DNA from: a virus
IMG/VR virus record: IMGVR_UViG_3300016474_000049
Coordinates: 1-64,000 of that record
Reading direction: 5' to 3' (one strand)
Length of the DNA: 64,000 nucleotides
This document shows positions 18,863 through 52,060 of this stretch, in pieces. The position numbers and the translations under genes were made by a program. The notes below the pieces were generated by a model. It searched no databases and was not told the DNA's origin. It was given only the letters and a program-made list of their open reading frames with translations. Numbering within the stretch: position 1 is the stretch's first letter; every line of letters starts with the position of its first letter.

Positions 18863-18890
18863 CCCCGCCCTCCCTCGCGGGGATTTTTTT
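18863..18890 (+). terminator. rho-independent terminator at the convergence of the early and late blocks
   Basis: CCCCGC (18863-68), 8-nt loop, GCGGGG (18877-82), then A and a T7 run (18884-90). The T run abuts the stop codon of the - strand 2045-aa gene. Confidence 0.8.
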
Positions 18891-26643: not shown

Positions 26644-28380
26644 TTAGGGTTTATTGATTATTCCAAGCGCAGCAAGTGCAGCCGTAATTGCTTCTGTATT
26701 AGGACTAATCCCCGTAGGTGCAGCTTGTATGGGCAAATTTTGCAGCATGTTCCTCATGAACGTGAGGTTTTCATATGGATACTTTTCACCACGCAGGAAC
26801 TCGTTATAGTCAAATGACCGCTCTGCCGCACCCGTATCGTACTGTTGTTTAAGTCTTGCAAGATCAGCAGCGTTTTGTGCGTAACCAAGATTACCCAAAG
26901 CCGTACCTGCTTGGATAGAAGTCTGTAACCCCCTAAGCCCAAGATCAGCACCAAACTGACGAGACTTCTCACCCAACTCTTGAGCTTTTAGCGCACGTTC
27001 TTGCTCGGTGTTGAACTGCCCCATACCAGAACTATATGCAGCTTGTAGTCCTTTGATGTCGAGGTCCGAGAGTTGTTGTCCTAAGTTGCGTTGACGTTCT
27101 GCTTCAACCAACCCATAGCGTGAACCACCAAAAGCCCCTTGAGATACAGCTTGTGCAGCTTCTCGTTGACCTGCAATATCCGAGGCACGTTGCGCTTCGC
27201 GCTTGGCAATGTTAGTGACGTTTTGCATGTACGGGTCCATGTAGGAAGCCTGCACATTAGTCACATTCTGCCCACCGTATTGCATGGGTTGTAGGTTGCT
27301 CATACCGTAGTTTATGTTGGTATAAGGCGATTGTTGGGAAGAATTAGACCCTACGTTTACGTCACCCCCAGCTTGATATTCAACAGTGCCACCCTCTGCT
27401 TTACCGGGAGGTGGTTGGGTTTGTTGAGTTTGTGCTTGCTGCCCCACAAACGGATTAGCAAATGTTCCCGTAGCGTATTGCGTTGGTTGGTAGTTGCCAT
27501 ACATAAGCGCACCCAAACCAGCGGCTTGAGCGAGGTTAGACCCCGCTGCAAATTGACCAGGGGTTACAAGATTTTTTAAACCAGACGTTGCCTGCGTAAT
27601 AAGCTCAGGGGTTTTTGTATACGCCTGAAAAGGCACATCAGCTTCTGCCGAAGCACGTTGCAGCATAGTCTGAACATAATCAACATAAGGATCGCGCAAA
27701 CCTGAGTTTTCACCAGTAACAGCAACACCCTTACCCACGCGATCTCCACGCATGGTTGTGTCACCTGTATCTACGGTTTTCTTAGCAGCAAGATCTTGAG
27801 CTTCTTTGGACTTACCAAACTCTTCGCGGATTTTTTCTAGCCCTGCACCTGTTTCATCCCAATACTTAAGCCCAGCCTCATCAGCTTCACGACCCAATAC
27901 GTCCTTATACAACTGCTTAATTTGATCAGCAGAAGCATCTTTGCCGATAGCCTCGTTGTAGTAACGTTTTTCTTCAGGGCTCAAGTACCCACTTTGATCT
28001 TTGTCAAAGCTAGAAAGAAACTCTCTGTCTTTTGCAGAAGCAAAGTCTTTAGTGCCGGGGATAAACTCTTGCCCTGTAGCTTCAGCAAACTTACGTCGTT
28101 CGCTAGGGCTGAGATACTTATCTTTATTAACATCAAACGACTCATAAAAGGCACGGTCTTCGGGTTTACCAAACTGCAAACCTTCAAGCTTTTGTACCCC
28201 AACATCGGCAGCTTCTGCGCTACCAGCCATACCAGCAATAATGTCGCTAATATTTGCGCCTTGGTCTAGCAACCCTGCAAAATATGCAAGACCACCCTCA
28301 TCAGGTTCACGGCCAAAGAATTCGGCATAGAGCGCACGGATTGCTTCTTCGGATTCTGGGGAGTAGGTTTTATCAGCCAT
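26644..28380 (-). CDS. virion protein with two DUF4214-like repeats and an EF-hand-like pair (578 aa)
   Basis: LYAEFFGREPDEGGLAYFAGLL and LYKDVLGREADEAGLKYWDE (DUF4214 pattern). DVNKDKYLSPSE and DKDQSGYLSPEE fit the 12-residue EF-hand loop. Confidence 0.8.
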   Translation of the reverse strand: MADKTYSPESEEAIRALYAEFFGREPDEGGLAYFAGLLDQGANISDIIAGMAGSAEAADVGVQKLEGLQFGKPEDRAFYESFDVNKDKYLSPSERRKFAEATGQEFIPGTKDFASAKDREFLSSFDKDQSGYLSPEEKRYYNEAIGKDASADQIKQLYKDVLGREADEAGLKYWDETGAGLEKIREEFGKSKEAQDLAAKKTVDTGDTTMRGDRVGKGVAVTGENSGLRDPYVDYVQTMLQRASAEADVPFQAYTKTPELITQATSGLKNLVTPGQFAAGSNLAQAAGLGALMYGNYQPTQYATGTFANPFVGQQAQTQQTQPPPGKAEGGTVEYQAGGDVNVGSNSSQQSPYTNINYGMSNLQPMQYGGQNVTNVQASYMDPYMQNVTNIAKREAQRASDIAGQREAAQAVSQGAFGGSRYGLVEAERQRNLGQQLSDLDIKGLQAAYSSGMGQFNTEQERALKAQELGEKSRQFGADLGLRGLQTSIQAGTALGNLGYAQNAADLARLKQQYDTGAAERSFDYNEFLRGEKYPYENLTFMRNMLQNLPIQAAPTGISPNTEAITAALAALGIINKP

Positions 28381-37347: not shown

Positions 37348-38628
37348 TTATGCTGCAATCTGCGTCCACGCTGCGCTTTGCGTATTATTAATCAATACCC
37401 AGTTTGCTGTCTGTGTCGTATTAATATCGACCCAGCCGGGGTTTGATATTACAGGGGCTTTTCCTACCAACGTCAACTGCCCAGAAGGTGGCGTAATAAC
37501 TCGGTCCGCTAATATTTCAGGCGCAGCACCTACAAGCGTTAATGTACCCGTAACAGGCTGGATGACAGCCCCGCGAACAAGGCTTGGGGCTACACCTTGA
37601 GCCGTTAAAGCACCGGTCGCTGGGGTAATACTGGTACTTCTACTTAATTCAGGCGCAGAACCCGCAGCAACAATTGCTCCGGTATTTGGTGTTATTGACT
37701 GAGGTACAAGAATACTAGGCGCATAACCCTGCGTCACCGCCGCACCAGTATTTGGTGTTACGGATTTTGAAGACTCAATAACGTTAGGCGCAGCCCCAGC
37801 AAAAACCGCACTACCTGTTGCTGGCGTGATGACTGTATCTTTTGCTACGGTTGGTGCAGCCCCAGTAAGCGTTAAGCTTGCGCCCCCCGGAATAACAGTA
37901 AATTCTCTTCGTACTTCAGGCGCAGCCCCCGCAAAGTTTGCAGTGCCCGTATTAGGCGTTATTAGTGCGTTCTGAATAACAACCGGCGCAAAACCACCGA
38001 ATGTTGCAGCCCCTGCCGAAGGTGTAACTTCTCTTGGCAATATGACGACAGGTGCAGCACCCGCCAAACTTAACGCACCTGTCCCTGGAGCTGTTCCTGC
38101 GCCTGTAAATACTGTTGGTGTGATGCCGTTGAATGTGGCACTACCGGTGTTAGGCGTGATGAACGTGCCGGATGCTAAATCAGGTGCAAAGCCTTGGGTT
38201 GTAATCGCACCGGTGTTAGGTGTGATAAGTGCTTCACGCGCTATGGTTGGCGCAGCACCAGCAAAAACTGCCGCCCCGGTATTTGGTGTGATAAACGCAC
38301 TACGCTCAATGACTGGCGCAGCTCCAGCAAAAACTGCCGCCCCAACAGATGGGGTAATGATGGTGTCACGGATGACTGTTGGCGCTGCACCCTGCGCTGT
38401 GATTGCGCCTGTTGAAGGTGTGATGAAACGTTCTTGTACGACGGTTGGCGCTGCACCTGCGGCAACAATGGCACCGGTATTTGGGGTGATGAAACGATCT
38501 AGCTGTACAGTGGGTGCTGCACCCGCAGCCGTAATAGCCCCTACCCCAGGGGTGATAGATATAGCCCCCGTTGAGACTGTCGCAGCATCACTAAATGGTA
38601 GCGATGCAAATGGGGCTACACCAAACAT
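37348..38628 (-). CDS. tail-fibre-like protein built of 17 tandem 22-aa repeats (426 aa)
   Basis: Repeat consensus (I/V)TPxTGAxxxxGAAPxVxxxxx read 17 times in the translation. Confidence 0.8.
   Translation of the reverse strand: MFGVAPFASLPFSDAATVSTGAISITPGVGAITAAGAAPTVQLDRFITPNTGAIVAAGAAPTVVQERFITPSTGAITAQGAAPTVIRDTIITPSVGAAVFAGAAPVIERSAFITPNTGAAVFAGAAPTIAREALITPNTGAITTQGFAPDLASGTFITPNTGSATFNGITPTVFTGAGTAPGTGALSLAGAAPVVILPREVTPSAGAATFGGFAPVVIQNALITPNTGTANFAGAAPEVRREFTVIPGGASLTLTGAAPTVAKDTVITPATGSAVFAGAAPNVIESSKSVTPNTGAAVTQGYAPSILVPQSITPNTGAIVAAGSAPELSRSTSITPATGALTAQGVAPSLVRGAVIQPVTGTLTLVGAAPEILADRVITPPSGQLTLVGKAPVISNPGWVDINTTQTANWVLINNTQSAAWTQIAA
37443..38571 (-). repeat. coding tandem repeat, about 66 bp x 17
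   Basis: Corresponds to aa 20-395 of the 37348..38628 product. The same periodicity creates the spurious antisense ORF 38042..38752. Confidence 0.8.
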
Positions 38629-38645
38629 ATCAGGTCATCATACGT

Positions 38646-39002
38646 TTAAACAGAATCGGCAGCAACAGAATCGGCACCAATGGAGTCAGGCACTATCCAC
38701 TGACAAGTTGTTTCATCAAGTACAGCGTCTGGTGTTGGTTTTGGTGGGATAAACGCGTCACGAACGGGATCGTAGGTGTAGCCAATGCCTGCAAAGTTTT
38801 TACGGAAAGCCTTAGACTGATCCGCTGATGGCAAGCCCGTATCAGGGTCGTAGTGAACCCCGCCACGGGTGTTGTAAGACGTTTGCCTGTAGGTTTCACC
38901 CGTTCTAGCGCAGAGTTCCAACTCCTTACCCTCATCCTCTTGGCGACCCACAGTGACAAACACAACGGTTTGTAAATTATCAATTTTTGCAAAGTGTGGC
39001 AT
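38646..39002 (-). CDS. small conserved phage protein with C-terminal ADSV repeats (118 aa)
   Basis: Ends ...VPDSIGADSVAADSV. Lies between two fibre genes. Its PPKP and W-containing C-terminal part resembles the 40267..40551 product. Confidence 0.65.
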   Translation of the reverse strand: MPHFAKIDNLQTVVFVTVGRQEDEGKELELCARTGETYRQTSYNTRGGVHYDPDTGLPSADQSKAFRKNFAGIGYTYDPVRDAFIPPKPTPDAVLDETTCQWIVPDSIGADSVAADSV

Positions 39003-39010
39003 TTGGTTCC

Positions 39011-40270
39011 TCAGCTAAATGTGACCGTCTCTGAGGTCGTTGAGGTTGCGGTTATCGTGTAGATTTTGTACCCAGGAACCGCTGTGGATAAACTTGAAGT
39101 GACACCGCCAGAGAATGTTGCGGTGTTAGAGCTAGGTATTTTTAGAATTACAACACCAGACCCACCTGCACCTCCTGTAAACGGGCCTCCTGAAGCAGCA
39201 GTACCAGCACCACCGCCTCCGCCACCAGTATTGGAGCTGCCAGGAGAACCTGTTGCCCCGTTTGCTCCACCATTACCCCCAACGCCAGAACCACCAGTTC
39301 CAGCAGTCCCTGTGAGGTAAATTCCACCACCGCCTCCGCCAGCATAAGTTACGGTAGAGCCGGATATAGAAGATGATGCACCTGCTCCACCATTACCACC
39401 TGCTGTTCCACTTCCATTACCACCCGTCCCAGTGCTTGTATTTGCACCACCACCGCCGCCAGCACCATAATATAACGCAGAGGAGCTTCCATTTCCACCA
39501 TCTTTTCCTTGGGCTGCGTTTGAATCCGGCGGAGATGACGAATTGGGTGTATTCCCCATACCACCATTTCCTGGTGTTCCATCTCCAGCACCGCCACCAC
39601 CAGAACCACCGTTATTTCCGTTGTCTGTTGTTCCTGCGCTTCCACCTCCACCACCTCCACCACCGGCAGACGTTATGGTAGAGAATACAGAAGCAAAACC
39701 GTTTGAACCTCTAGCATTAGTTCCACCAGGGCCACCAGCACCTACGGTAACGGTATATGAAGTTCCAGCAGTAACACTAAGCCCAGTTCCAGTTCTAAAC
39801 CCACCGGCACCACCACCAGCACCTACCGTATTACCGCCAGTTCCAGCACCACCACCAGCACCTCCAGCGACAACAAGATACTCAACTAGAATATTTTTCG
39901 GAAGCGTTGTCACAGCAAACCCAGAATACGCAGCCCATCCCTGCGTATTGTCTACATAAACAAGCTGAACTGAACCTCTATTAGTAGATAAAACTATATT
40001 TCCCGTATCACCATTAATGTTCAACCCATTAGGGTTTACCATCAGGTTATTAGTACCCCAAGTCCCCGCATAATCTGTCAGCGTAATGACATTCCCTGCC
40101 GCTGGACTAGCAGGTAGCGTGACAGTAAATGCTGCGGAAGTCGTATTACACGGATAAGCCCTGCCAGCCACAGCCGTAAACCCCGTGGTCTGCACAGCTT
40201 GCCACGCCACACTGGATATACCAGATGTGCCTGACTGCGTGATGTTTGCGGATGTGATCTTGGTAGTCAT
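39011..40270 (-). CDS. tail fibre protein with glycine-rich domain (419 aa)
   Basis: N-terminal fibre-like segment, then VVAGGAGGGAGTGGN...YTVTVGAGG...GGAGGSGVVILKIP. Confidence 0.8.
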   Translation of the reverse strand: MTTKITSANITQSGTSGISSVAWQAVQTTGFTAVAGRAYPCNTTSAAFTVTLPASPAAGNVITLTDYAGTWGTNNLMVNPNGLNINGDTGNIVLSTNRGSVQLVYVDNTQGWAAYSGFAVTTLPKNILVEYLVVAGGAGGGAGTGGNTVGAGGGAGGFRTGTGLSVTAGTSYTVTVGAGGPGGTNARGSNGFASVFSTITSAGGGGGGGGSAGTTDNGNNGGSGGGGAGDGTPGNGGMGNTPNSSSPPDSNAAQGKDGGNGSSSALYYGAGGGGGANTSTGTGGNGSGTAGGNGGAGASSSISGSTVTYAGGGGGGIYLTGTAGTGGSGVGGNGGANGATGSPGSSNTGGGGGGAGTAASGGPFTGGAGGSGVVILKIPSSNTATFSGGVTSSLSTAVPGYKIYTITATSTTSETVTFS

Positions 40271-40551
40271 ACCGAATCAGCTCCTACGGAATCAGCGGCA
40301 ATGATTTCAACAGTTACAACCTCATCCACCGTTGTTGCATACTTACCCTCAACCCATGTCTTGTCAGAGTGGGTCCAGTTCCATTGATAACCTGCCCTGT
40401 CTGCTGGCTTTGGTGGACGTACCACCCATTCATGAGACCACCAGATAACTTCCATACCTTCAGGGCAGTCCGGTGCATCAGGCACTTGTACCCAACCCTC
40501 TGTGCCGTCAGTCTCAGGCTTTGGAATACTTCCGTTTTTACTGTAGAGCAT
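40267..40551 (-). CDS. small protein with C-terminal ADSV repeats (94 aa)
   Basis: Ends ...IIAADSVGADSV. Its stop overlaps the start of the next fibre gene (ATGA). Confidence 0.6.
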   Translation of the reverse strand: MLYSKNGSIPKPETDGTEGWVQVPDAPDCPEGMEVIWWSHEWVVRPPKPADRAGYQWNWTHSDKTWVEGKYATTVDEVVTVEIIAADSVGADSV

Positions 40552-40559
40552 GTGTTACC

Positions 40560-42563
40560 TCACTGAACTGGGAAGGGTGCAGTTGGTGCGGTGAAGTTGG
40601 ATGTGTAACGAGCAGACTTGGTGATGCGGAAGTCGTCGATGTATCCATTATAGTTTTGTGATCCGTCATTTACACAGCCAATATAAGGTCTGTTTGCCGG
40701 AGGAGCTACAGCGTCAGAATTAGCCCAAGTGCCGCCTGTGGATGCTCCATTAACATATAAAGTATAAGTACCGCTTGCCCTTACTAAAGCAACATGAGTC
40801 CATGTATTCGCAGTGATAGCAGAAGAAGTAATCCTATTAGAAATCATGTACACAACAAGAGTTCTTGAATTCGTGTAGTTTAAAGCCACGCCTTGCCCGC
40901 TAACGTCTGCATTCCTAAAATCAAACAGTACCTGCTGTGAACCAGGAGTTCCCGCATACATCCAAAATTCGACCGTGTAGTCACCGGTTCCCATATTGAA
41001 TAATGGGGGTGCTGCGCTGCTAGAAACCTGAACACGACAATTAGCAGTTCCATCAAAGGACATACTCCCACCACCCCACTTGCTCTGTGTTGTGCTGATC
41101 TGAGCATTCCCAACAGTCTCCAGCACATTCTTGGCAGTGGCATCGACAACGCCAGCGTTGGTGAAGTTGAGGAGGAGGGATGTGTTGGTGATTGCGGTGA
41201 GCGGTGCGGTTGGGACTGTGATAGTGCTATAACCAGTGCCTTTCAAGATACGGACATCAGTCATATATCCATTACAGTAATTTGTTCCTGCATCAGTTCC
41301 AATATTTACCGCGCTTTGTACCCAGTTTGATGAATTTGCTACCGAGGCTCCTTGAACACCGTTGATAAACAACTTCAAAGTTCCTGATTGCCTAGTCGCA
41401 ACACAATGATTCCACGCATTAAGATCAAGAGTGTTGGTTGTTGTCGCAATACCCCCTATCCCATAGTTTTGCAACTCCAATTGCCTAGAAGTATTCATGA
41501 AAACAATGGGAGCGTTTACGGTGGCAAAAGTTACGTTTCTTTGTGCTGTTGATGTTGGGTAAAGCCAAAACTCAATCGTAAAGTCACCAGTACCAAGCGC
41601 AAAAGCAGCATTGCTTGCAGCACTCAAATAATCCCCAGTCCCATCAAAATACCCGCTACCACCCACTGCTGATGCTGAGTAAGACTGTGTAGGGGCGAAG
41701 GGGGAGAAGGGGGTTACGGTGACATCGCCATTTCTGGTAATTGTTAATGGACTTGATGCTGGTGTGTTAACGCCATTACTATCTAAAAGCCTATTGGACT
41801 GAAGTGTTAAAAACTGAACGTTAGTTGCGCCTTGGCTTGTTCGTGTTAATGGTGACGTAATAGGCGTAAACCCAGAAGTGCTATAAACAGCAGCTTTTGA
41901 AAATCTTACGTTACTTAAATAACCAGGGAAACTTTGAGCGGCTATATCCCCTGAGTTGGTTCCAATCACCATGTTGGCTGTAGAACCTAAAGCAGCAGAC
42001 TTAGCGGCAGAACTTAAAAGAGTTCCATTTTGAAACGTGTAAACAGTCCCAGAACTTCTCATAACGCAAATATGAACCCAAGTGTTTGCGTAATTTGACA
42101 TAGTACCTATATAAGCTCCTGTTCCACCCCACTCTACATACACCTGCCTAGCATTTGCCGACCCGCTTCCGTAACCAATAGTCAAATTAGCGTTGGATGC
42201 TGCGGTCATTATCCCAACTTGAGACTTGTCTGACGTAACGTACATCCACCACTCAGCAGTAAAATCTCCGGTGGAAACAGAAAAATCTGAATTTGTGTAT
42301 TGAATGTAATCGCTAGCACCATCAAAGTAAGCGCCCCACCCAGTCTGGCTGAACGGGCTGAACGTACCCTGCGTTGTGTTGCCGTTGCGGGTGATGGTGA
42401 AGGTATTACTGGAACTGTCTAAGAACGTATTGTTCTGTGCGCCGTTAGTGCCGTTGCCAGGAAGGAGCAAGGACACAAGGTTGAAATACTGATCAGTAAT
42501 AAGACCTGAAGTAAACCCCCAAGCCTTTGCACATGCTGCGCCTAATGTGGTGAAAATGGGCAT
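40560..42563 (-). CDS. tail fibre/receptor-binding protein with three LamG (concanavalin-like lectin) domains (667 aa)
   Basis: Three spaced copies of the Laminin_G_3 signature: GDFTAEWWMY, GDFTIEFWLY and GDYTVEFWMY. Each is followed by WxHxA/C and G(T/Y)xDxxRI. Confidence 0.8.
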   Translation of the reverse strand: MPIFTTLGAACAKAWGFTSGLITDQYFNLVSLLLPGNGTNGAQNNTFLDSSSNTFTITRNGNTTQGTFSPFSQTGWGAYFDGASDYIQYTNSDFSVSTGDFTAEWWMYVTSDKSQVGIMTAASNANLTIGYGSGSANARQVYVEWGGTGAYIGTMSNYANTWVHICVMRSSGTVYTFQNGTLLSSAAKSAALGSTANMVIGTNSGDIAAQSFPGYLSNVRFSKAAVYSTSGFTPITSPLTRTSQGATNVQFLTLQSNRLLDSNGVNTPASSPLTITRNGDVTVTPFSPFAPTQSYSASAVGGSGYFDGTGDYLSAASNAAFALGTGDFTIEFWLYPTSTAQRNVTFATVNAPIVFMNTSRQLELQNYGIGGIATTTNTLDLNAWNHCVATRQSGTLKLFINGVQGASVANSSNWVQSAVNIGTDAGTNYCNGYMTDVRILKGTGYSTITVPTAPLTAITNTSLLLNFTNAGVVDATAKNVLETVGNAQISTTQSKWGGGSMSFDGTANCRVQVSSSAAPPLFNMGTGDYTVEFWMYAGTPGSQQVLFDFRNADVSGQGVALNYTNSRTLVVYMISNRITSSAITANTWTHVALVRASGTYTLYVNGASTGGTWANSDAVAPPANRPYIGCVNDGSQNYNGYIDDFRITKSARYTSNFTAPTAPFPVQ

Positions 42564-42572
42564 GATTCACCT

Positions 42573-43157
42573 TTACGCAAATTTGGTCTGACTGGCAAAA
42601 ATCGTAAATGTCGCGCTGGCTGTTTTAACAATACTGTAGACATACACATCAATCCCTGACGCGTTGCCAGCAGTTGGAGCCGTACCGTTCTGCCACTTAG
42701 GTGTAACGGATGCACCGTCCACTTGAACAGCCGAGTTGTAATAAGCCGTTGATCCTTGCGTGACCAAATGAGCAACCGTAATAGCCTGCCCGGTTGCCAA
42801 AGCCGTGTTCAGACTCGTGCCAGAACTTGCTCTAAAGTTGATCGTCCAGTTAGCTGACGCGTTGCTTGTGTAGTACAGAACCGACTGCGTGGTGATGTCA
42901 TAGTTAATCGTGCCTGTCGCAGCCGTTGCCGATATGGTCGCAGTCTCAGCAATGTCGTTTAAGACCATCGCAATCGCACTGCTTGTCCCGGCGAAGGTTT
43001 GAGTACCTGTGAAGGTTTGAGCCAAACCAAGCGCAGCAAGCGTATCCGTAGATGTTGGATCAGGCAGCGTGATGGTGGCTGAGTTAGAAGTGTTGGGGCT
43101 TTGTAGCGTGGTTGTGCCAGCGCCAGAAGCATTACCCTGAACTTTAAGATTGCTCAT
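42573..43157 (-). CDS. tail fibre-like protein (194 aa)
   Basis: MSNLKVQGNASGAGTTTLQSPNTSNSATITLPD, S/T/A/N-rich beta sequence in the fibre locus. Confidence 0.65.
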   Translation of the reverse strand: MSNLKVQGNASGAGTTTLQSPNTSNSATITLPDPTSTDTLAALGLAQTFTGTQTFAGTSSAIAMVLNDIAETATISATAATGTINYDITTQSVLYYTSNASANWTINFRASSGTSLNTALATGQAITVAHLVTQGSTAYYNSAVQVDGASVTPKWQNGTAPTAGNASGIDVYVYSIVKTASATFTIFASQTKFA

Positions 43158-43166
43158 GTCAAATCC

Positions 43167-43994
43167 TTAACCAAAAATTAACCAACGCTGACCCGTGCCG
43201 ACAGTCACCGCAACACCTGTATTAATCGTGACAGGCCCAACACTTGAGCCGTTATAAGCCGACGTTACCGAGTAGTTGCTTGAAATGGTTTGCTGGTTTT
43301 CGGAAATAACACCAGAGCCGCCTCCACCACCGCCAGCAAGAACTCGTATCTGGATAGCCACACCATTTGCTGGAGCAGTCGTAAAGACAACACTTGTACC
43401 TGAGATGGTGTAGTCGGTGGTCGGGACTTGCGTGATGCCGTTTTCTAAGACCAGTACGTTGTTAACGGTTAATCCGCTTGTGCTGGTATTAAACGATGTG
43501 GTGGTGCCATCACCTGTAAAGGTAAAGGTTGCGTAGCTTGGACCGCCTCCGCCACTACTAATTGTTATCGTACCCGCGCCATTAGTGACTGTAATCCCAC
43601 CACCGCCGGTTAAGGTTGAGAGGGTAAAATCAGTACCATTACCAATAAGCAGTTGACCATTGCTTGGCACCGTAGCAGCATATGCAGATCTACCCGCCGG
43701 ATAAGTAACGAAAACATCCTGCGTCCCGCTACTAAAGTTAATCCGGCTTGTTGTTCCAGCGGAGTTGGATAAGACCGTCGTCCTCGTAAGCGTTGTGCCA
43801 GAAAGGGTAAACGTCCCAATACCAACTTCCCAGTTATTCCCAGACTGGTCCGCTATGGTGTAAAAGGTTGAATTACCATCACCAATAACGTTAAAGTTTT
43901 GAAAGCCGGTTACCGCTGCACCAAGTGTTATAGGCGTAGCCGTCCCCGGCGCAGATACAGTAACCTTGACTCGGTCTGCAACAACAAAGGCCAT
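43167..43994 (-). CDS. tail fibre-like protein (275 aa)
   Basis: T/G/S/V-rich, with internally similar segments ending in GGGG runs. Position in the fibre locus. Confidence 0.65.
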   Translation of the reverse strand: MAFVVADRVKVTVSAPGTATPITLGAAVTGFQNFNVIGDGNSTFYTIADQSGNNWEVGIGTFTLSGTTLTRTTVLSNSAGTTSRINFSSGTQDVFVTYPAGRSAYAATVPSNGQLLIGNGTDFTLSTLTGGGGITVTNGAGTITISSGGGGPSYATFTFTGDGTTTSFNTSTSGLTVNNVLVLENGITQVPTTDYTISGTSVVFTTAPANGVAIQIRVLAGGGGGGSGVISENQQTISSNYSVTSAYNGSSVGPVTINTGVAVTVGTGQRWLIFG

Positions 43995-44004
43995 AAGATT
44001 CGCC

Positions 44005-44463
44005 TTAAGTTAAGGTGAACACGCCGGTTGCTGCTGGAAGAATCGTCAGGGTATTTGGCGAAGTCACTGTGAATTGGCTCGATGAGAGCTGGCACCAGCA
44101 CAACATTTGCCCTGCTGTCGCACCCGTGGAGTTACGGATCACAGCATATTTCACGTTAGTCAACGAAGCGCCCGAAGCCGTAAAGGTCAGACCCACTGTT
44201 GAATAGGTGAACTTATACTGTTTTGCCGAAGCTCCAACCGTCCAGTAACCTGTGGCCGGAACAATGTTCTTTCCACCCGTGGTGTATCCACCCGTAGCAG
44301 CGATTTCATTGGTTAAGGACGCATAGGTACTAAGCGTGAAGGTTGAAGCATTACTTGCAGATGTTGCCAAAACCATTTTGAAAACACCGGCACCGAGCGT
44401 GATTGTCCCGTTACCGATCTTCTTTTTGGCTTTGTTATAAAGCTGCCATGCGGAAGCTGCCAT
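44005..44463 (-). CDS. beta-rich virion protein, paralog B of the 45899..46333 product (152 aa)
   Basis: Shares VFK(I/M)xL, YxS...E(I/V)...YTxGG and A(L/V)I(Y/R)NST with the 144-aa protein on the other side of the methyltransferase gene. Confidence 0.65.
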   Translation of the reverse strand: MAASAWQLYNKAKKKIGNGTITLGAGVFKMVLATSASNASTFTLSTYASLTNEIAATGGYTTGGKNIVPATGYWTVGASAKQYKFTYSTVGLTFTASGASLTNVKYAVIRNSTGATAGQMLCWCQLSSSQFTVTSPNTLTILPAATGVFTLT

Positions 44464-44473
44464 GTTAAAACTC

Positions 44474-45889
44474 CTATAAATCGGCTAACGAAGCGCCGGT
44501 TTCCAAAATATGATGGAGTAATCCATCATAAACCTCAAGCTCAATTTCATCACCCATCATGCGGATCAGGTCAATGAACTCTTGCGCTTGCGAAATCATC
44601 CAAGGATTGCAGTGAAAAATCTTTCCACCGACATTAACGGGTACCACCATCTGCCCGTCATTTTCCTTTTGCTCATAAGCATGATGCGCCCCGTCTTCAA
44701 CACAGGAATCACATCCAATAATATGAAAACGTTTGAACCCTAGCATTCTAAAGAGAGGGATGGCTCTTAACAAGACCGTTGACCCACCCGGAACAGGCCA
44801 CCACGTTTTGTACTGCTCATCAAGCAGATCTTTAATCAGCGACGTACCTGTGTGCCAGATGTAAGTCTGCTCTTGTGGAACCTTTTCAAAAAGCGATGGA
44901 TGACATTGAGAAGCTAAAAAGTATTTGCACTCAGGAATGATCGGATCTAAAAATCTCGCGTTGAAATCCCTTGCATCCACAATAATCAGCGCAGAAGGCT
45001 TTATGTCATGATCCAAACAAAACTTATACGCGTTGTTCATGGCAATGAGCTTCACGCCTTTATTACGTAGCTCACGAACCTTTTCAATATTTTTTGCCAG
45101 CGACGGACCACCACCTACCAACATAACCTCTACATCACTTGTATTGTGAGGCACTACCTGCTGGAAACCAAGCTTGATGTTATGGCTGACGTTATCGCGG
45201 ATAAGCCCTTCTTCAACATTGAGTTTTCCTGAATCTACAACCTCAGAACCGCTCACCCAAGCCGATACATAAAAATACGCATATCCCGGTGCTTCTTTAG
45301 ACCAGTGAATAATGCAGTCACGCTCTTTGAATTTGTTGAGCCACCATTCATACGGATGCACACTTAAATGCAACTTATGGCCCACCAACGTGCCCATCAC
45401 ATCGTCTTCAGTAGCAATCTGAAAAAACACATGCTGGCAGGCAGCAAGACAATTATTTAATACACGATCTACATGATGAGGGCGAATATGCTCCATCACA
45501 TCCGTACAAAACCCATAAGCCGCTTGAACCGGCAGAGGCTGGGATAGATCCGCTTCCACAAAACGCATCACATGCTTTTGTGTTTCCAGCATAGGCACAA
45601 TGTCTTCATCAAGACAATTAGACGCAAAGTCAACCATCGTGACATCAAGACTTCCAAACACAGCAAGATTCAATCCACCTCGGCCTGTTCCACAACCAAG
45701 ATCAATGACCGAAGCGCCAACAGGTGGTTTTGCCTGACGCAAAAATTCAAACGCAGCTTGCTCCCCCGGAGCTACTTTTCTGTATGCCGGGATGTTCCAC
45801 ATCATTTTGTAAAGATCTTTTTCTAACGGGCGGTCGTTAGTAACCTTCACAACAGGCGGTTCAGAAAACACTGCGGAGAAAAATGTCAT
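44474..45889 (-). CDS. class I SAM-dependent methyltransferase fused to a DUF115 (MptE/Maf-like) domain (471 aa)
   Basis: Methyltransferase motif I VIDLGCGTGRGG, then MVDF, FVEADL and CTDVMEHI. C-terminal half has MLVGGGPSLAKN...KLIAMNNAYKF...PSALIIVD, the GxGPSL pattern of DUF115. Confidence 0.8.
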   Translation of the reverse strand: MTFFSAVFSEPPVVKVTNDRPLEKDLYKMMWNIPAYRKVAPGEQAAFEFLRQAKPPVGASVIDLGCGTGRGGLNLAVFGSLDVTMVDFASNCLDEDIVPMLETQKHVMRFVEADLSQPLPVQAAYGFCTDVMEHIRPHHVDRVLNNCLAACQHVFFQIATEDDVMGTLVGHKLHLSVHPYEWWLNKFKERDCIIHWSKEAPGYAYFYVSAWVSGSEVVDSGKLNVEEGLIRDNVSHNIKLGFQQVVPHNTSDVEVMLVGGGPSLAKNIEKVRELRNKGVKLIAMNNAYKFCLDHDIKPSALIIVDARDFNARFLDPIIPECKYFLASQCHPSLFEKVPQEQTYIWHTGTSLIKDLLDEQYKTWWPVPGGSTVLLRAIPLFRMLGFKRFHIIGCDSCVEDGAHHAYEQKENDGQMVVPVNVGGKIFHCNPWMISQAQEFIDLIRMMGDEIELEVYDGLLHHILETGASLADL

Positions 45890-45898
45890 TGGAAGCCC

Positions 45899-46333
45899 TT
45901 ATTCAATACGAAGAATGGCGTCAGTTGCTGACGCTGCTGGGAAAGTTATTACCAAATCTTGTGCTGTCTTGGTAATCGTACTACCAAAATTCAGAACACA
46001 CACTGCACGGTTTCCGTTGGTGGAATTGTAAATGAGTGCTCCGGCGCAGGAAAGGGTTACGTTGCTGAAAGTAGCTGTTTGAAAAGACCAATAAGCGGTG
46101 GTTCCGCTTGTCGTTGGTGTGATGTTTGTGAGCGCAATCCCGCCAAGGGTGTAATTGGTTCCACTCGTCGGTACTTCCCCAGCGGATGAGTAAACGGTGG
46201 TGTCTGCATTGAGGGTGGCAGAGGAAAGGTACAAAGCGATTTTGAAAACATTGCCCGTCCCTGTCGTGAAGTTATGTAACCCCTGAGCAAGTTCTGCTTT
46301 ATAGCTTGTGCACGCTGTTTGGATGATCGCCAT
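45899..46333 (-). CDS. beta-rich virion protein, paralog A (144 aa)
   Basis: See 44005..44463. Tight packing in the late operon. Confidence 0.65.
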   Translation of the reverse strand: MAIIQTACTSYKAELAQGLHNFTTGTGNVFKIALYLSSATLNADTTVYSSAGEVPTSGTNYTLGGIALTNITPTTSGTTAYWSFQTATFSNVTLSCAGALIYNSTNGNRAVCVLNFGSTITKTAQDLVITFPAASATDAILRIE

Positions 46334-46334
46334 A

Positions 46335-46994
46335 TCACTTCACCGGATACCGAACCTGACCAGAACGATAAGCATCCTGTCGGTCCTTGGCATCTCCAAG
46401 CTGTTTAAGTAGCGCCATTGCTTCGCCATACATCTTGTCAATAGCCCCAATCATATCCGGCTCACCCTTCAGGAAGATATAAGCTTCACGGATCGATCCA
46501 TAGAGCAACGCAGAATCAAAGTTTTCACTTAGCCACGTATAACCAGATGCAGCGTCAACAATCGATTCGGGGTAGAAGTAATAATGCAATTCAACGGGGT
46601 AGCTTAAATTAGGTGTGGGGCCAAGAATAAATGTCAGTTCTCTAGGTGCACCGTAATCAGGGCCAAAAATAGCATAGTGCTTAGGTTTACCTGTATCAGT
46701 GGGCGTGGGGTAAGCCTCACGCATAAAATTTACATCTTTATTTAACAAATAAAGATACTCGCCTGATGTGGGGTCAATAACCGCCATGCTATATGGCGCT
46801 AAAAAATCATCAGGACATTGCAAATATTTGTTGTTGGCTGTTGCTGTACCTGTTACGTTGCGGCGAAGATTGGGCAACTGCACCGAGTTATAGATGCGCT
46901 GCTCTGCCTGACGAATGATGGTATCAATGTCAGTCGTGGAGAAAACATTTTCCACATAATCCTGTACCGCTGTAACAAGCTGTGAATAATTCAC
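46335..46994 (-). CDS. virion morphogenesis protein, possible head-tail adaptor/completion protein (219 aa)
   Basis: The N-terminus MNYSQLVTAVQDYVEN...IRQAEQRIYNSVQLPNLRRNVTG resembles neck/adaptor proteins of podoviruses. The assignment is tentative. Confidence 0.6.
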   Translation of the reverse strand: MNYSQLVTAVQDYVENVFSTTDIDTIIRQAEQRIYNSVQLPNLRRNVTGTATANNKYLQCPDDFLAPYSMAVIDPTSGEYLYLLNKDVNFMREAYPTPTDTGKPKHYAIFGPDYGAPRELTFILGPTPNLSYPVELHYYFYPESIVDAASGYTWLSENFDSALLYGSIREAYIFLKGEPDMIGAIDKMYGEAMALLKQLGDAKDRQDAYRSGQVRYPVK

Positions 46995-47254
46995 GCCATC
47001 GGTCCCCTGCTCATGACACCTTTAGTAGCAGCACCAGCACCACGCATTTTGATTCCAGAGGTTTTTACTTCGTTGTTGACGCGTTTGGTTTTATTGCCAA
47101 TCGTCATATTCACCGTATCCACAGCACTATGGTCAGGACCACTTCCGGGATTGGCTTCTATCGGGGTTCTTTTTCCCTTCATGGTGTGTGGCTCCGCGTA
47201 GGTTGAGGCAGGACCAACTTCTTTCCCGCCTTTTTTCATACTGTACTTAGCCAT
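46991..47254 (-). CDS. small basic G/K-rich protein (87 aa)
   Basis: ATGA coupling. KMRGAGAATKGVMSRGPMA tail. Confidence 0.55.
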   Translation of the reverse strand: MAKYSMKKGGKEVGPASTYAEPHTMKGKRTPIEANPGSGPDHSAVDTVNMTIGNKTKRVNNEVKTSGIKMRGAGAATKGVMSRGPMA

Positions 47255-47436
47255 TATCGGCCTCGTTGGTTAGCAGCACGAGCCAAATTACGACCCATTT
47301 TCCGCATATCCATACCTGTAGGACCGCCCTTCTTGAGCTTGGTCAGAGGTTGGCCTTTGTGTTTGGCTTTCTCATGCTTGTGCACTGCACCAGCAATCAT
47401 CTTTTTGTCTTGCGCTAGATCTTTCTTATCCATCAT
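47254..47436 (-). CDS. small basic K-rich protein (60 aa)
   Basis: One-nt overlap coupling. KHEKAKHKGQPLTKLKKGG...RAANQRGR. Confidence 0.5.
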   Translation of the reverse strand: MMDKKDLAQDKKMIAGAVHKHEKAKHKGQPLTKLKKGGPTGMDMRKMGRNLARAANQRGR

Positions 47437-47442
47437 GGACTC

Positions 47443-47817
47443 CTAAGAAACTGTGACACTACCAACTTCTGCGAAACTCACCAAGTGATTCGGCGTCAAC
47501 GCAGCATCAAACCATCTTGCCATTCCCACAGGATTAAAACCCCACTCAATAACACGAGACCCACCATCACCTCCGGGAGCCGGAACATAATAAGATGGAG
47601 CATCAGGTCTTGGATTACGAATAGCTTGCGGGTCATAGACCGGATACATCCCAAGCTGCAACTGCGGTTGATCGGGTTCCCAACATTCTGGGCACACCAA
47701 GATATTAACGTTTTTGGTCTTAATGACCAAGGTTTTTAGCTGTTTTAATTTATAGCGAAAGTTACACCTATCACATTGCGCTATCGCCCATTTACCAGAG
47801 GCAAACTGATTAGGCAT
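47443..47817 (-). CDS. zinc-ribbon structural-module protein (124 aa)
   Basis: CDRCNF...CPECW double CxxC motif. Overlap-coupled to the upstream gene. Confidence 0.6.
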   Translation of the reverse strand: MPNQFASGKWAIAQCDRCNFRYKLKQLKTLVIKTKNVNILVCPECWEPDQPQLQLGMYPVYDPQAIRNPRPDAPSYYVPAPGGDGGSRVIEWGFNPVGMARWFDAALTPNHLVSFAEVGSVTVS

Positions 47818-48581
47818 CAGAAGCTCCCAGTGTTCCCCAAATACATCCGTCGAGGAACAAAACGAACCGCAGCTTTCTCACGATCTTCACCCGTAGCGTA
47901 GGTCATCTGCTGCTCGTATTCAGAGCGTAAAAACTGCAACCGTTCCTGACCTTCAGGAATTTTCTGAGCGATGTAATACGCTAGTCCCGCCATTAAGCAA
48001 GGATAAAAACGAAACGTCATATCAGGCGTCTGAATACCAGCTCCGGCATCCTGAATACGGCGCATACGCCAATACACTACTTGATAGTACGGCGAGGCTT
48101 CAGTGCCTTGGTCAGGGACAGGCCAAACAGTGAAACTGGGGTTTGCTGTCGCACCGGGGCTGTATGCGCTTGTTGCTGGGTAGGTTTGTCCAGAGTTGCG
48201 CTGGATGTAAATCTGTATCGGTCTTGCTTGAGCCAACTTGTTGGGGATTGTGGCGTAGGTGGAGACACTAATCCTTGTAAGTGTAAGGTCAGCTTGCGTT
48301 GAGGCATTACCTGCACCCGTCCTTATAACGTGTTCAAGCAAGTCAATGGTGTCGTTCGGAAGAGTGTACGTCGCAGTGCCTTGTACAAGGTTCTTCGTGC
48401 CCTGCTCAATCGTCCACATATTGATGCCACGATTTGCCCACTCTATCGTTAGCAAGTTCATCGACCTACGTGCGGTACGCAAGTCATAACCAGAGCGCAT
48501 CTCACGCCCAGCACGTTCGTACGCCTCTTCAGCGATCTCCGTGAATTCTGGGGTAAAACCTGTTGAACCGCTAGTGGTCAT
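47817..48581 (-). CDS. virion structural protein, possible neck/adaptor (254 aa)
   Basis: Late-operon position between the basic-protein cluster and the neck genes. EIAEEAYERAGREMRSGYDLRTARRSMNLLTIEWANRGINMW. The family is not named with certainty. Confidence 0.65.
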   Translation of the reverse strand: MTTSGSTGFTPEFTEIAEEAYERAGREMRSGYDLRTARRSMNLLTIEWANRGINMWTIEQGTKNLVQGTATYTLPNDTIDLLEHVIRTGAGNASTQADLTLTRISVSTYATIPNKLAQARPIQIYIQRNSGQTYPATSAYSPGATANPSFTVWPVPDQGTEASPYYQVVYWRMRRIQDAGAGIQTPDMTFRFYPCLMAGLAYYIAQKIPEGQERLQFLRSEYEQQMTYATGEDREKAAVRFVPRRMYLGNTGSF

Positions 48582-48811
48582 CTAAATCTCGCAGTCTTTG
48601 CGGCAATTTTTGCCGGTTGTTTAACGAACTGCTTACCCGCACTCTTTCCAGCTCGCTTTGCTCGTGTTGTTGCAGCATATTCTGAAGGTGAAAGCGACTT
48701 AATTGCCGCTTCCGGGAGGTATCGTTCGCCAGTTTTACTAGACGGTTTACCACTTTTTGTCCGCCATTTCTGGTCTCCCCAATTCTTCAGGCTTTGCTGC
48801 GGGGCTTTCAA
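48578..48811 (-). CDS. small basic protein (77 aa)
   Basis: ATGA coupling. K/R/A-rich (AKRAGKSAGKQFVKQPAKIAAKTARFR). Confidence 0.55.
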   Translation of the reverse strand: MKAPQQSLKNWGDQKWRTKSGKPSSKTGERYLPEAAIKSLSPSEYAATTRAKRAGKSAGKQFVKQPAKIAAKTARFR

Positions 48812-49083
48812 TCTCGGTAGCCCCCACCTGCTGCTTTGTACTTCTTAGCTACAAGTTGTGCTTTCCTCGCGGACCAAAGTCCTGCCCCTGTGCCATGAGT
48901 AGCAGCAGCTTTAACCTGAGCAACAATTCGTTTTCGTAGCCCAGGTTTGGTGTAATTACCCGCTGCATTTACCTTGCCACCTTCGGCATACTGATTGAAA
49001 TCAGTATCATCCCGCCTTGCTTTACGCTTAGCAGTGGGCATTTTAGAGGGGGCTATTGCCCCCATGCCGCGAGACGCCATCAT
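48808..49083 (-). CDS. small basic protein (91 aa)
   Basis: ATGA coupling. PGLRKRIVAQVKAAATHGTGAGLWSARKAQLVAKKYKAAGGGY. Confidence 0.55.
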   Translation of the reverse strand: MMASRGMGAIAPSKMPTAKRKARRDDTDFNQYAEGGKVNAAGNYTKPGLRKRIVAQVKAAATHGTGAGLWSARKAQLVAKKYKAAGGGYRD

Positions 49084-49370
49084 TTCTTTTTAGCCATTCC
49101 ACCGTAGCAATAGCCGCCAGCTTTCATACCTTTGCCACCAGCCATCTTGATCTGGGTGCCTTTGGTTTTACCCTTCATAGCAACACCATCACGGCTAGGA
49201 GCAGCAGTTTTAACAGCGCCCATTTTGCTTGCGGCTACGCCGCCAGAAGACATCTTTTTCATCGTAAATTCCTTACCAACGGATTGAGGGACACCGACCT
49301 TCTTTGCAAACTTAGGATTGTGAGCCACTGCTTGCATAAACTTCTCTTGCTTATCACTAACCGTAGGCAT
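49080..49370 (-). CDS. DUF3008-like small basic protein (96 aa)
   Basis: The N-terminus SDKQEKFMQAVAHNPKFAKKVGVPQSVGKEF resembles DUF3008. C-terminus has DGVAMKGKTKG and G/K-rich sequence. Confidence 0.55.
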   Translation of the reverse strand: MPTVSDKQEKFMQAVAHNPKFAKKVGVPQSVGKEFTMKKMSSGGVAASKMGAVKTAAPSRDGVAMKGKTKGTQIKMAGGKGMKAGGYCYGGMAKKK

Positions 49371-50131
49371 TACCGCATCATCCCACGAGTCTTGCCGCGC
49401 ATCGCAATACCATCTGCACGTTTGGAAGCTGAACCTACTTTGCCACCTTTAGCAAACCCACTCATGCTACCAAGACCCTTAGCCGACATAGCACCTGCAC
49501 CAAAAGTACGAGAAGGGGTTGATGTTTCTTTAGCTGCTTCTTCCGCAGCTCTACGGCGTCGGTTTACGATATAGGCATCAGGCTCATTACCTAACCGATC
49601 ACGAGCAAGAATAGAAGAACCAAGACGACTTTCACGAGCTTTTTCAGCATCCGACTCTCGCTGTGATCGTTCCCCAGCAGCTTTAACACCTTCATGTCGT
49701 GCTTTGCTTGAAGCTAGATCGGTAGGACGACGTTTAGTAAGGTTTTCTTCTGCGGTTTCACGCCCACCGACTTTAGGTGCAGTAGGTTTAGCCCCTGCCA
49801 TTTCCGTCGTATAAGACTTACCGTTAAACGTAAATTTATCTTTACCTGCTTTACGAGCTTCAGCAAAGGCTTCACGAAAACTAGATGGGCGAGTGCCACC
49901 CATAATTTTTTCACGATCTTCGCTTGCGCTACGTTCCCCTTCAGCTTTAGCAGCGACCCCTTCTGAAAGTTCTTTAGCTCGTCGCCGCATATTGTCATAA
50001 GCTTCATCAGTTTGCTCTTTAGTAACTCCTGGACCAATAGGCAGCCGTCTAGCCACAGGAGCATCGGAAACCAAACTTTCATCTTCCCCGTTGTAACGTT
50101 TACGGGCACCAAATTTAAGCATCTTTTTCAT
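49370..50131 (-). CDS. basic K/R/E-rich protein (253 aa)
   Basis: Start chosen at ATG 50131 (MKKMLKFGARKRY), just upstream of the stop of the preceding gene. The C-terminus DGIAMRGKTRGMMR repeats the motif of the 49080 product. Confidence 0.6.
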   Translation of the reverse strand: MKKMLKFGARKRYNGEDESLVSDAPVARRLPIGPGVTKEQTDEAYDNMRRRAKELSEGVAAKAEGERSASEDREKIMGGTRPSSFREAFAEARKAGKDKFTFNGKSYTTEMAGAKPTAPKVGGRETAEENLTKRRPTDLASSKARHEGVKAAGERSQRESDAEKARESRLGSSILARDRLGNEPDAYIVNRRRRAAEEAAKETSTPSRTFGAGAMSAKGLGSMSGFAKGGKVGSASKRADGIAMRGKTRGMMR

Positions 50132-50327
50132 CAGTAGCATCCTTTTTGCGGCGGATAAGCTCGTGAAATTCTTTGCCTGTAACCATCTCAGCAATACGCA
50201 TCAACGTCCAGACAGCACCGATAAGTCCAAATAACGGCGTAATCACTTGAAGAAACGATCCAATAGTAGCGAACACAGATACGATGTCTGCTACATTTTT
50301 TACCAATTCATGTTTATCTTGTGTCAT
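50115..50327 (-). CDS. small membrane protein (70 aa)
   Basis: Hydrophobic core IVSVFATIGSFLQVITPLFGLIGAVWTLM, charged tail. Confidence 0.5.
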   Translation of the reverse strand: MTQDKHELVKNVADIVSVFATIGSFLQVITPLFGLIGAVWTLMRIAEMVTGKEFHELIRRKKDATDEKDA

Positions 50328-50328
50328 C

Positions 50329-50583
50329 TCAACATTTCCATGCTCTTAAGGATTTATTGATTCGACTGTTGGGGTCGTTGGCTGTCTTGGCGCTTGTCAG
50401 CTTCTTTTTCATCCCTTTCATCCGGGCGCAAAAAGAATCCCGACGTGAGCCACCTTCGGGTTGTGGAGGTTTCAACCCAGGCTTGCCAGGATTTGCAGCA
50501 TTGTAAGAGGCACGACCCTTGGCGTTCAGTCCACCTTTAGGGTTCTTGCCTTCCTTACGCTGCCAAGCAGGAGACTTAGCCAT
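50329..50583 (-). CDS. small basic protein (84 aa)
   Basis: K/G/P-rich (EGKNPKGGLNAKGRASYNAANPGKPGLKPP). One-nt gap to the next gene. Confidence 0.55.
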   Translation of the reverse strand: MAKSPAWQRKEGKNPKGGLNAKGRASYNAANPGKPGLKPPQPEGGSRRDSFCARMKGMKKKLTSAKTANDPNSRINKSLRAWKC

Positions 50584-51457: not shown

Positions 51458-52060
51458 TCAGTTTGTTGGAGTGGTGTCAATAAGTCGATTGTATTTAGCT
51501 AAGTTATCTTTTTGAGTAAGAACTTGAAGGTTCCAAGGTACATGCAAGCCACACACGCTTTCGCCGTGTAAAGGAATAATGTGGTCCACTGCATAGCGTT
51601 CCCCAGTAGTACGACTTAATTCAATAGCAAGACGATACTTAAGACGAATCTCCATTTTATGAGTGTCCGTTAGCCATTTAGGTGTGGCGTCCCTGAATCT
51701 ACGCCGCCGCAGGCTAGTCATTTCTTTATACATATCAGGGTTGTTTACTTTATGAGTCTTTTTATATCGGCGTTTATCGTCATCTGGTCTTGCCTGTGCC
51801 CGCGCAATGACATTTTCTTTGTTAGCTTCGTAATACTTGCGCTTAGCTTGCTGCCCCGCCTCTGATTTGTTGTACTCACGGAAGTAATCAGCCCTCGTCA
51901 CATTGGCTTTCTCCCATTCAACTTTTAAACACTCAACACAAGCACCTTTGGTTTTGCGTGGGGCTACATGTCCGTGCTTGCAGGGTTCCCCCGTGAAGTA
52001 ATACTTAGCGCCTGTTGCTTTAGCTTCTTGGCGGGTTTTGGGTAGGTTTGTGGTATCCAT
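51458..52060 (-). CDS. HNH endonuclease (paralog B)
   Basis: YAVDHIIPLHGESVCGLHVPWNLQVLTQKDNLAKYN, N-terminal CKHGH...CVECLK. AAGGAGAG RBS. Sits immediately after the capsid-gene terminator. Confidence 0.85.
   Translation of the reverse strand: MDTTNLPKTRQEAKATGAKYYFTGEPCKHGHVAPRKTKGACVECLKVEWEKANVTRADYFREYNKSEAGQQAKRKYYEANKENVIARAQARPDDDKRRYKKTHKVNNPDMYKEMTSLRRRRFRDATPKWLTDTHKMEIRLKYRLAIELSRTTGERYAVDHIIPLHGESVCGLHVPWNLQVLTQKDNLAKYNRLIDTTPTN

Follow-up and report, generated by a model that had tools for sequence, protein, structure and literature searches.

What does an enzyme that joins a methyltransferase to a domain of flagellin-modifying proteins do among the virion genes of a phage? The question is raised by positions 1 to 64,000 of IMG/VR record IMGVR_UViG_3300016474_000049 (the window, meaning the whole 64,000-nucleotide stretch that was analysed), in which a gene for a 471-aa protein lies between two small genes, p144 and p152. 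The original prediction described this protein as a fusion of an S-adenosylmethionine (SAM) methyltransferase and a DUF115 (Maf-like) domain, and considered either a moron-like insertion between duplicated genes or an enzyme that modifies virion proteins, fibres or host surface structures. We report here that the real unit at this locus is a two-gene module, the enzyme followed by a p152-type protein, rather than a symmetric trio. From its domains, invariant residues and gene context, we tentatively propose that the protein is a late-expressed bifunctional enzyme that would glycosylate and methylate a virion protein, most likely p152.

Domains and conserved residues of the enzyme

The three predicted open reading frames (ORFs), p144, the enzyme gene and p152, were all recovered on the minus strand (Table 1), and every motif quoted for the 471-aa protein is present in it. 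In the N-terminal half these are VIDLGCGTGRGG (aa 61-72), TMVDF (aa 84-88), FVEADL (aa 110-115) and CTDVMEHI (aa 128-135), and in the C-terminal half MLVGGGPSLAKN (aa 256-267), IAMNNAYKF (aa 282-290) and ALIIVD (aa 300-305). Both of the predicted domain types were matched by Pfam above the respective cut-offs. Methyltransf_25/23 matched aa 50-172 with 29.4 and 27.2 bits, just above the cut-off of 27, and PF01973 (MptE-like; formerly DUF115/Maf_flag10) matched aa 233-399 with 85.8 bits (E=3.8e-24, model positions 6-170 of 171), the curated gathering threshold of this family being 34.6 bits.

The N-terminal domain has the features of a class I SAM-methyltransferase, namely the Rossmann fold, motif I, an acidic residue at the end of beta-2 and the motif II/III residues. 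Its invariant positions are the SAM motif D63-x-G65-C-G-T-G69 (VIDLGCGTG), D87, D114 and D130/E133/H134, and family-specific motifs flank the Rossmann fold on both sides (E..Y..W....YR...PGE before it, LHLxV.P..WW after it). Invariant in the PF01973 domain are G259-G260-x-P262-S263, N285, D305, H346, G368-G369-S370-T371 and D394, followed by H403. Residues of catalytic type are conserved in both domains. A universal zinc site composed of C393/C396/H402/H403/C427 was considered and rejected, because the family with swapped domain order described below has GYDSS where the window has GCDSC.

The AlphaFold2 (AF2) model of the enzyme had a mean predicted local distance difference test (pLDDT) score of 81 and was confident within each domain, with a disordered linker at aa 213-223; the 72 residues beyond the PF01973 domain were modelled as a small beta/alpha region. 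When this fold was searched against the PDB, the top match was Maf (5MU5; E=1.2e-10, 464 aligned columns, 12% identity), and all other top matches were SAM-methyltransferases, many of them SAM-bound. The neighbours of the methyltransferase fold include phosphoethanolamine N-methyltransferases and the phosphonate O-methyltransferase DhpI.

Profile and fold searches of both halves had been named as a check on the original prediction, and they placed the C-terminal half in PF01973 and not in an unrelated family. Within PF01973 this half appears closer to the Maf nonulosonic-acid transferases than to the archaeal MptE kinase. A profile of the domain matched Maf 5MU5 with E=4.3e-7 over 181 positions, compared with E=2.7e-4 over the first 78 positions for the MptE kinase 8SD5; the match to Maf spans the whole PF01973 domain, including the GxD motif and the following His, while similarity to MptE is confined to about the first 80 positions. 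The best NCBIfam model was the Maf-family PseD, with 23.6 bits against a cut-off of 670 bits. Published mutagenesis has identified E324, D415 and a conserved Ser of MmMaf as essential (D272/S334/D357 in CbMaf). By our own count on the hidden Markov model (HMM) alignment, D305, D394 and the G368-G369-S370-T371 loop of the phage enzyme align with Maf E324, D415 and the conserved Ser, respectively, and all of them are invariant.

Relatives were collected by an exhaustive profile search (4828 cluster representatives), and their architectures were confirmed with Pfam. The methyltransferase precedes the MptE-like domain as in the window, or follows it in a swapped order, or is combined with it and a dual-specificity phosphatase (DSP) domain; each domain was also found alone, and one protein carries two MptE-like domains with one methyltransferase. 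The swapped family has the same invariant residues in both domains. As the fusion exists in both orders with the same invariant residues, and also with the DSP domain, the methyltransferase and PF01973 domains are functionally coupled and work together. The additional phosphatase domain is N-terminal in the relatives P0242, P0246 and P0247 (one of its loci being L190, 5416-7389), and its Cys-X5-Arg motif (HCxxGxxRS) is intact in P0242 and P0247, the two sequences examined. These proteins have three catalytic-looking domains, and a p152-type gene still lies one gene downstream. A reading of the three-domain fusions as RNA-capping-like enzymes was set aside in view of their position in the virion module and the lack of a nucleotidyltransferase fold.

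The enzyme and p152 across relatives

Homologues of the enzyme were found in 2223 clusters, and the best 120 of these all carry both domains, at 61-100% identity. Among 80 IMG/VR loci of the window's clade, p152 follows directly downstream in 76 of the 76 informative cases and p144 lies directly upstream in 78 of 80. At all nine loci on contigs binned into metagenome-assembled genomes (MAGs; 38-75% identity), a p152-type gene begins 1-48 nt after the enzyme gene. In a further, diverse IMG/VR set, strict adjacency of the p152-type gene held at 52 of 58 informative loci. Mapping of five of the six exceptions placed this gene no more than about 270 nt, or one small gene, downstream; the sixth (L243) equals L242 in enzyme length and match statistics. 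The p152-type gene is accordingly counted at 143 of 143 informative loci with the window's domain order (76+9+58; L243 itself unmapped), down to 38% identity. The adaptor gene is the conserved upstream neighbour of the module in relatives; in the diverse loci the upstream neighbours vary. Downstream, a large p426-like protein is usually encoded after p152, directly or within one or two genes.

The predicted position in a late structural operon, upstream of fibre genes, was borne out, with an adaptor gene on one side and fibre-like genes on the other. This arrangement of enzyme, flanking genes, adaptor and fibres is far beyond chance; the enzyme gene stands within the virion operon and its pairing with p152 is invariant. 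Mean identity to the window across the clade was highest for p152 (84%) and the enzyme (74%), both of which surpass the adaptor (55%) and the fibre-like genes (39% for p426 and 45% for p299) in conservation; p144 had 45%. Conservation of p152 parallels that of the capsid protein (91% versus 88% in locus L001, 62% versus 64% in L003), a pattern more in keeping with a core component than with a receptor-binding tip. The best 120 database clusters matching p152 are all at least 87% identical to it.

The two flanking genes are paralogous, as the original prediction had it. For both products the match to phrog_644 runs the full length (about 140 of 174 profile positions), and the family alignment brings their common motifs VFKxxL, YTxGG and IxNST into register; a direct BLASTP comparison between them was weak (E=0.008). 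A matrix of bit scores and a tree resolved phrog_644 into two deep subfamilies, p152-type and p144-type, with p144 scoring 20 bits against p152, so that both are ancient subfamilies and not products of a local duplication. The p152-type subfamily always accompanies enzymes of the window's domain order, and its sister group is formed by gp29 of mycobacteriophage Bruin and gp39 of Courthouse. The p144-type subfamily includes gp57 of the Pelagibacter phage HTVC023P and genes after the portal in another lineage. HTVC023P gp57 is the p144 orthologue (45% identity) and lies directly after the adaptor in a genome lacking the enzyme and p152; Planktothrix phage Pag-Yong1 has none of the three genes. 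Hence p144 is the older resident of the position and the more variable of the two, and the score of 20 bits and the deep subfamilies indicate that the enzyme and p152 joined long ago at a place where a p144-type gene already sat.

In PHROG, phrog_644 is a family without functional annotation, and a family profile search found no relative among PDB sequences. p152 consists of 27% Ser/Thr with almost no acidic residues, and ends in a conserved C-terminus (SPNTLTIxPAAxGVFTL). Among cultured phages, p152 has its nearest relatives in unannotated mycobacteriophage genes (Courthouse gp39, locus L007, 6001-6432; Bruin gp29, locus L008, 6001-6429). In mycobacteriophages of clusters E and J and in M. 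abscessus prophages, these genes come last after the minor tail proteins, a place that supports a virion-associated role of phrog_644, and they offer a tractable model for the family.

Enzymes with the swapped order were present on 548 IMG/VR contigs of a different, unrelated phage type (loci L009-L088; L081, 5971-7317; L178, 5935-7266). Gene order in these phages is portal, a 62-aa ORF, a p144-type phrog_644 gene and, further along, the major head protein (phrog_9953), which is followed by a 'virion structural protein' (phrog_29386), the enzyme, phrog_20268, a tail protein and an amidase. The phrog_29386 gene lies directly before the swapped enzyme in 69 of 72 loci. In both lineages a small neighbouring gene abuts the PF01973 end of the enzyme gene, and the position of the enzyme in a virion module recurs in two unrelated lineages. 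No homology was detected by hhalign or hmmsearch between the neighbours in the swapped lineage (phrog_29386-like, 119-aa and 219-aa clusters) and phrog_644 or the window proteins p166, p91 and p219b. One phage of this lineage is a prophage on a 649-kb contig of Isosphaeraceae (Planctomycetota), which is the sole firm host case. MAG-binned contigs with the gene were assigned to many unrelated phyla, and are for that reason probably mis-binned phage contigs.

Origin and function of the module

The suggestion of a moron-like insertion between two recently duplicated genes did not hold up, and we regard it as highly improbable. Such an element would be expected to bring transcription signals of its own, and none were apparent. 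The gaps between p144, the enzyme gene and p152 are 9-10 nt, Shine-Dalgarno-like motifs overlap the preceding stop codons, and the TAG stop of the enzyme gene lies inside the AGGAG ribosome-binding site of p152. Promoter-like sites were fewer than in shuffled sequence and absent from the gaps, and there is no terminator after the enzyme gene. The GC content of the gene is ordinary (0.458, against about 0.47 for the genome). Hundreds of metagenomic phage contigs with 70-90% identity keep the arrangement, as do divergent phages whose identity falls to 38%; the enzyme is found at every informative clade locus rather than patchily, and p144 and p152 belong to the old subfamilies described above. 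What speaks for an insertion is that neither the enzyme nor p152 occurs in the cultured relatives Pag-Yong1 and HTVC023P, which indicates that the pair was gained at some point in the ancestry of the clade.

In the mechanism that we propose, the 471-aa protein would be produced late from the virion operon and act in the cytoplasm as an enzyme for the post-translational modification of a virion protein. Its C-terminal domain, related to Maf and to the sialyltransferase Cst-II, would transfer an acidic sugar onto Ser/Thr of the acceptor. The sugar would have been activated by the host as a cytidine monophosphate (CMP)-linked nonulosonic acid or 3-deoxy-D-manno-oct-2-ulosonic acid (Kdo), and methylation, either of that sugar or of residues in the same acceptor, would fall to the N-terminal SAM-methyltransferase. 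The likeliest acceptor, or obligate partner, would be the co-inherited p152, with a p426-type fibre-like protein as the second candidate. From these features we infer the kind of donor, which protein is the acceptor and any effect on the virion. If the proposal is correct, a Maf-type transferase with an active methyltransferase and a small acceptor or adaptor of its own would represent a new class of virion post-translational modification, and the modification would affect adsorption, particle stability or recognition. That the module amounts to a widespread system of abundant uncultured aquatic phages, by which methylated acidic sugars are put on p152 or the adjoining fibre, is possible but rather doubtful.

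Several results weigh against this proposal. The similarity to Maf is remote, both in the identity of the fold alignment and in the PseD score, which is far below its cut-off, and the C-terminal helical domain with which Maf binds its acceptor (FliS/flagellin-like) is absent from the enzyme. The acidic residues in question probably bind nucleotide and metal across all of PF01973, so that kinase or pyrophosphokinase chemistry stays compatible with them. A profile of the methyltransferase alone retrieved only generic class I matches from the PDB, through the SAM-binding core, from which the acceptor class is not assignable. The CMP-sugar donor is conjectural, because no nonulosonic acid or Kdo pathway was found among the window ORFs scanned. 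As to the acceptor, p152 has no conserved Ser/Thr/Lys pattern marking a modification site, AF2 gave it no usable fold (mean pLDDT 38, from an alignment of 24 sequences of both subfamilies), and the small neighbour in the swapped lineage is from a different family, which means that the acceptor is not universal. Furthermore, there is no cultured carrier: the enzyme is absent from all of the nearest isolates, and tblastn against GenBank phages gave a single match, to a methyltransferase only.

Three other functions were weighed against modification of a virion protein. The PF01973 domain may be an ATP-dependent kinase or pyrophosphokinase like MptE which, with the methyltransferase, makes or modifies a small molecule or a phosphorylated group. 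The Pfam family is named after MptE, the nucleotide-binding GxGPS start of the domain is the part that matches 8SD5, the phosphatase domain with its intact Cys-X5-Arg motif in some relatives hints at phosphate chemistry, and phosphoethanolamine N-methyltransferases and DhpI are among the fold neighbours of the methyltransferase. We nevertheless consider this unlikely, since the match to Maf is the stronger one and covers the whole domain with its GxD motif and His, since a gene of small-molecule metabolism would not be expected to be locked to p152 in virion modules of two lineages, and since no folate or pterin genes were found in the window. Glycosyltransferase rather than kinase chemistry is what we infer.

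Characterised Maf proteins act on cell-surface filament proteins, and receptor-masking glycosylation is a known theme (introduction of PMC13445384), from which it could be supposed that the enzyme modifies a host structure (flagellin, pilin, S-layer or envelope glycans) and thereby blocks superinfection or remodels the surface before lysis. This is distinctly unlikely given that the gene lies in the middle of a late virion operon in two unrelated lineages, that the enzyme lacks the flagellin-binding C-terminal domain of Maf, and that a phage protein, p152, is its invariable companion. The genomes also appear to be of lytic type, so that exclusion functions expressed late would be of little benefit. 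Lastly, the protein could be a virion or assembly component that serves p152 and the fibres as scaffold or chaperone, its enzyme folds being no longer catalytic. Such a role would agree with the structural genes around it and with how very strongly it and p152 are conserved, and the failure of p152 to fold alone in AF2 fits a need for a partner or oligomer. On the other hand, the SAM motif and the acidic and Ser/Thr positions equivalent to those of Maf are invariant over more than 60% divergence and in both domain orders, a pattern typical of active enzymes, and a purely structural role is accordingly very unlikely.

Genome setting and comparison with known systems

The coordinates of the module and its neighbours are given in Table 1. 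The genome in the window is podophage-like, with a terminase, a portal, a capsid protein, two SU10-type adaptors and fibre-like proteins; other genes encode a 2045-aa LPD39 polyvalent protein, a family A DNA polymerase, an SNF2 helicase and a DUF927 primase/helicase. No near-identical DNA and no close relative of the window were found among GenBank phages. The isolates that come nearest to it in portal and capsid similarity are the phages Pag-Yong1 (Planktothrix) and MinM2 (Synechococcus), the Pelagibacter phages HTVC023P and HTVC027P, DSL-LC04, the Roseobacter phages CRP-901 and CRP-902, and Caulobacter phage RW.

Table 1. Coordinates of the enzyme gene, its domains and neighbouring genes in the window
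Feature	Coordinates	Strand	Description
Enzyme gene	44474..45889	(-)	471 aa; SAM-methyltransferase, linker, PF01973 domain and short C-terminal region
Methyltransferase domain	45263..45823	(-)	about aa 23-209; Pfam Methyltransf_25/23 and invariant alignment columns
PF01973 Maf_flag10/MptE-like domain	44693..45193	(-)	aa 233-399; Pfam E=3.8e-24
p152	44005..44463	(-)	152 aa; phrog_644 E=7.6e-13
p144	45899..46333	(-)	144 aa; phrog_644 E=1e-11
SU10-type portal adaptor gene	46335..46994	(-)	PF24175 E=4e-23; upstream boundary of the module
p426, fibre-like gene	37348..38628	(-)	tblastn/BLASTP to loci L001, L003, L173-L176
Extra fibre block (p275, p194, p667, p94, Gly-rich p419, p118)	38646..43994	(-)	between p152 and p426

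The fibre-like genes downstream of p152 begin with p275, which has a weak match to the T7 tail-fibre N-terminus, and continue with p667, which has three Laminin_G_3 domains; p426 matched no Pfam or PHROG family. L001 and L003 lack the block containing p275 and p667, and their p426-like gene comes after p152. The block is therefore an insertion specific to the window, and it looks like the insertion of a host-range cassette.

Some further late genes were noted, all on the minus strand. Between the capsid genes and the adaptors (46991-50583) lie about seven small, very basic ORFs rich in Lys/Gly/Ala (60-274 aa), three of which have a motif like DG[IV]AM[KR]GKT[KR]G in common. Similar arrays are present in L001 and L003, one gene of L003 matching DUF6321, and these ORFs could encode internal head proteins or DNA-associated proteins. 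The LPD39 'large polyvalent protein' domain protein (18889-25026) stands at the end of the late operon and probably belongs to the ejected or internal proteins of the virion. An HNH-like motif (DHIIPLHG...N..VL) occurs in a 200-aa ORF (51458-52060) that separates the major capsid gene from the next head gene; the ORF gave no Pfam match at E<=0.01, and nothing in L001 or L003 matched it. Finally, a 578-aa late protein (26644-28380) carries DUF4214 repeats and a weak EF-hand-like match.

Under automatic 'MptE-like' names, proteins of the same fold were found in BFVD/UniProt (A0A6J5PVH5, A0A6J7X5Q0, A0A6J7XC21 and others; E=1e-17 to 3e-20), several with the same two-domain architecture, which in BFVD is confined to uncultured (Caudovirales) phages. 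Literature searches on MptE-like/DUF115 proteins in phages and on nonulosonic-acid modification of virions returned no paper on a phage PF01973/Maf-type enzyme or module, and no functional or contextual analysis of the 'MptE-like' proteins of uncultured phages.

Archaeal MptE (6-hydroxymethyl-7,8-dihydropterin pyrophosphokinase, 8SD5) is a member of the same Pfam family and has the N-terminal part with GxGPS in common with the phage enzyme, but the alignment is limited to about the first 80 positions, MptE lacks a fused methyltransferase, and the phage gene has no pterin-pathway context. The Maf (motility accessory factor) proteins of Magnetospirillum magneticum (5MU5), Clostridium botulinum (CbMaf) and Geobacillus (GkMaf), which are nonulosonic-acid O-glycosyltransferases of flagellin, are closer. 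They have a PF01973 domain with a Cst-II-like fold, the acidic residues at the E324/D415 positions and the Ser/Thr loop are conserved in the phage enzyme, and in both proteins an N-terminal Rossmann domain stands ahead of the PF01973 domain. Maf is composed of an N-terminal degenerate methyltransferase-like Rossmann domain, a central PF01973 domain and a C-terminal flagellin/FliS-like domain. In the phage enzyme, by contrast, the methyltransferase is intact and the C-terminal helical domain is missing, and its gene lies in a virion operon, paired with p152 and with no flagellin. No flagellin or CMP-nonulosonic-acid biosynthesis genes were present among the window ORFs scanned, the neighbours of the enzyme being virion genes. 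Flagellins glycosylated by Maf are also Lys-methylated. Together with an intact phage methyltransferase in the position of the degenerate domain of Maf, this suggests that the ancestral enzyme performed both glycosylation and methylation.

The closest precedents for modification of the particle come from mycobacteriophages. Phage enzymes of Che8 and related mycobacteriophages, described simply as glycosyltransferases, O-glycosylate capsid and tail proteins (Freeman et al. 2023, cited in PMC13445384 and PMC11256854). A mycobacteriophage tail protein is also methylated, by the host MepM, and this matters for adsorption and infectivity (PMC13445384). As in the Che8-type system, the enzyme of the window is phage-encoded by a gene beside structural genes; modification of the phage's own virion was demonstrated there and is proposed here. 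The Che8-type glycosyltransferases are conventional GT-A/GT-B enzymes that use common nucleotide sugars. They lack a PF01973 domain, a fused methyltransferase and a dedicated small partner protein, while MepM differs in being encoded by the host and in not being fused to a glycosyltransferase-like domain. Experimental demonstrations of phage-encoded particle modification are limited to a few systems, mainly these mycobacteriophages, in which it alters antibody recognition of the particle. If our proposal is correct, the idea would extend to a new enzyme class, in which an active methyltransferase is fused to a Maf/sialyltransferase-like domain, and to a very large and abundant group of uncultured aquatic phages (thousands of protein clusters, hundreds of IMG/VR contigs), in the form of a two-gene module with a directly testable partner protein.

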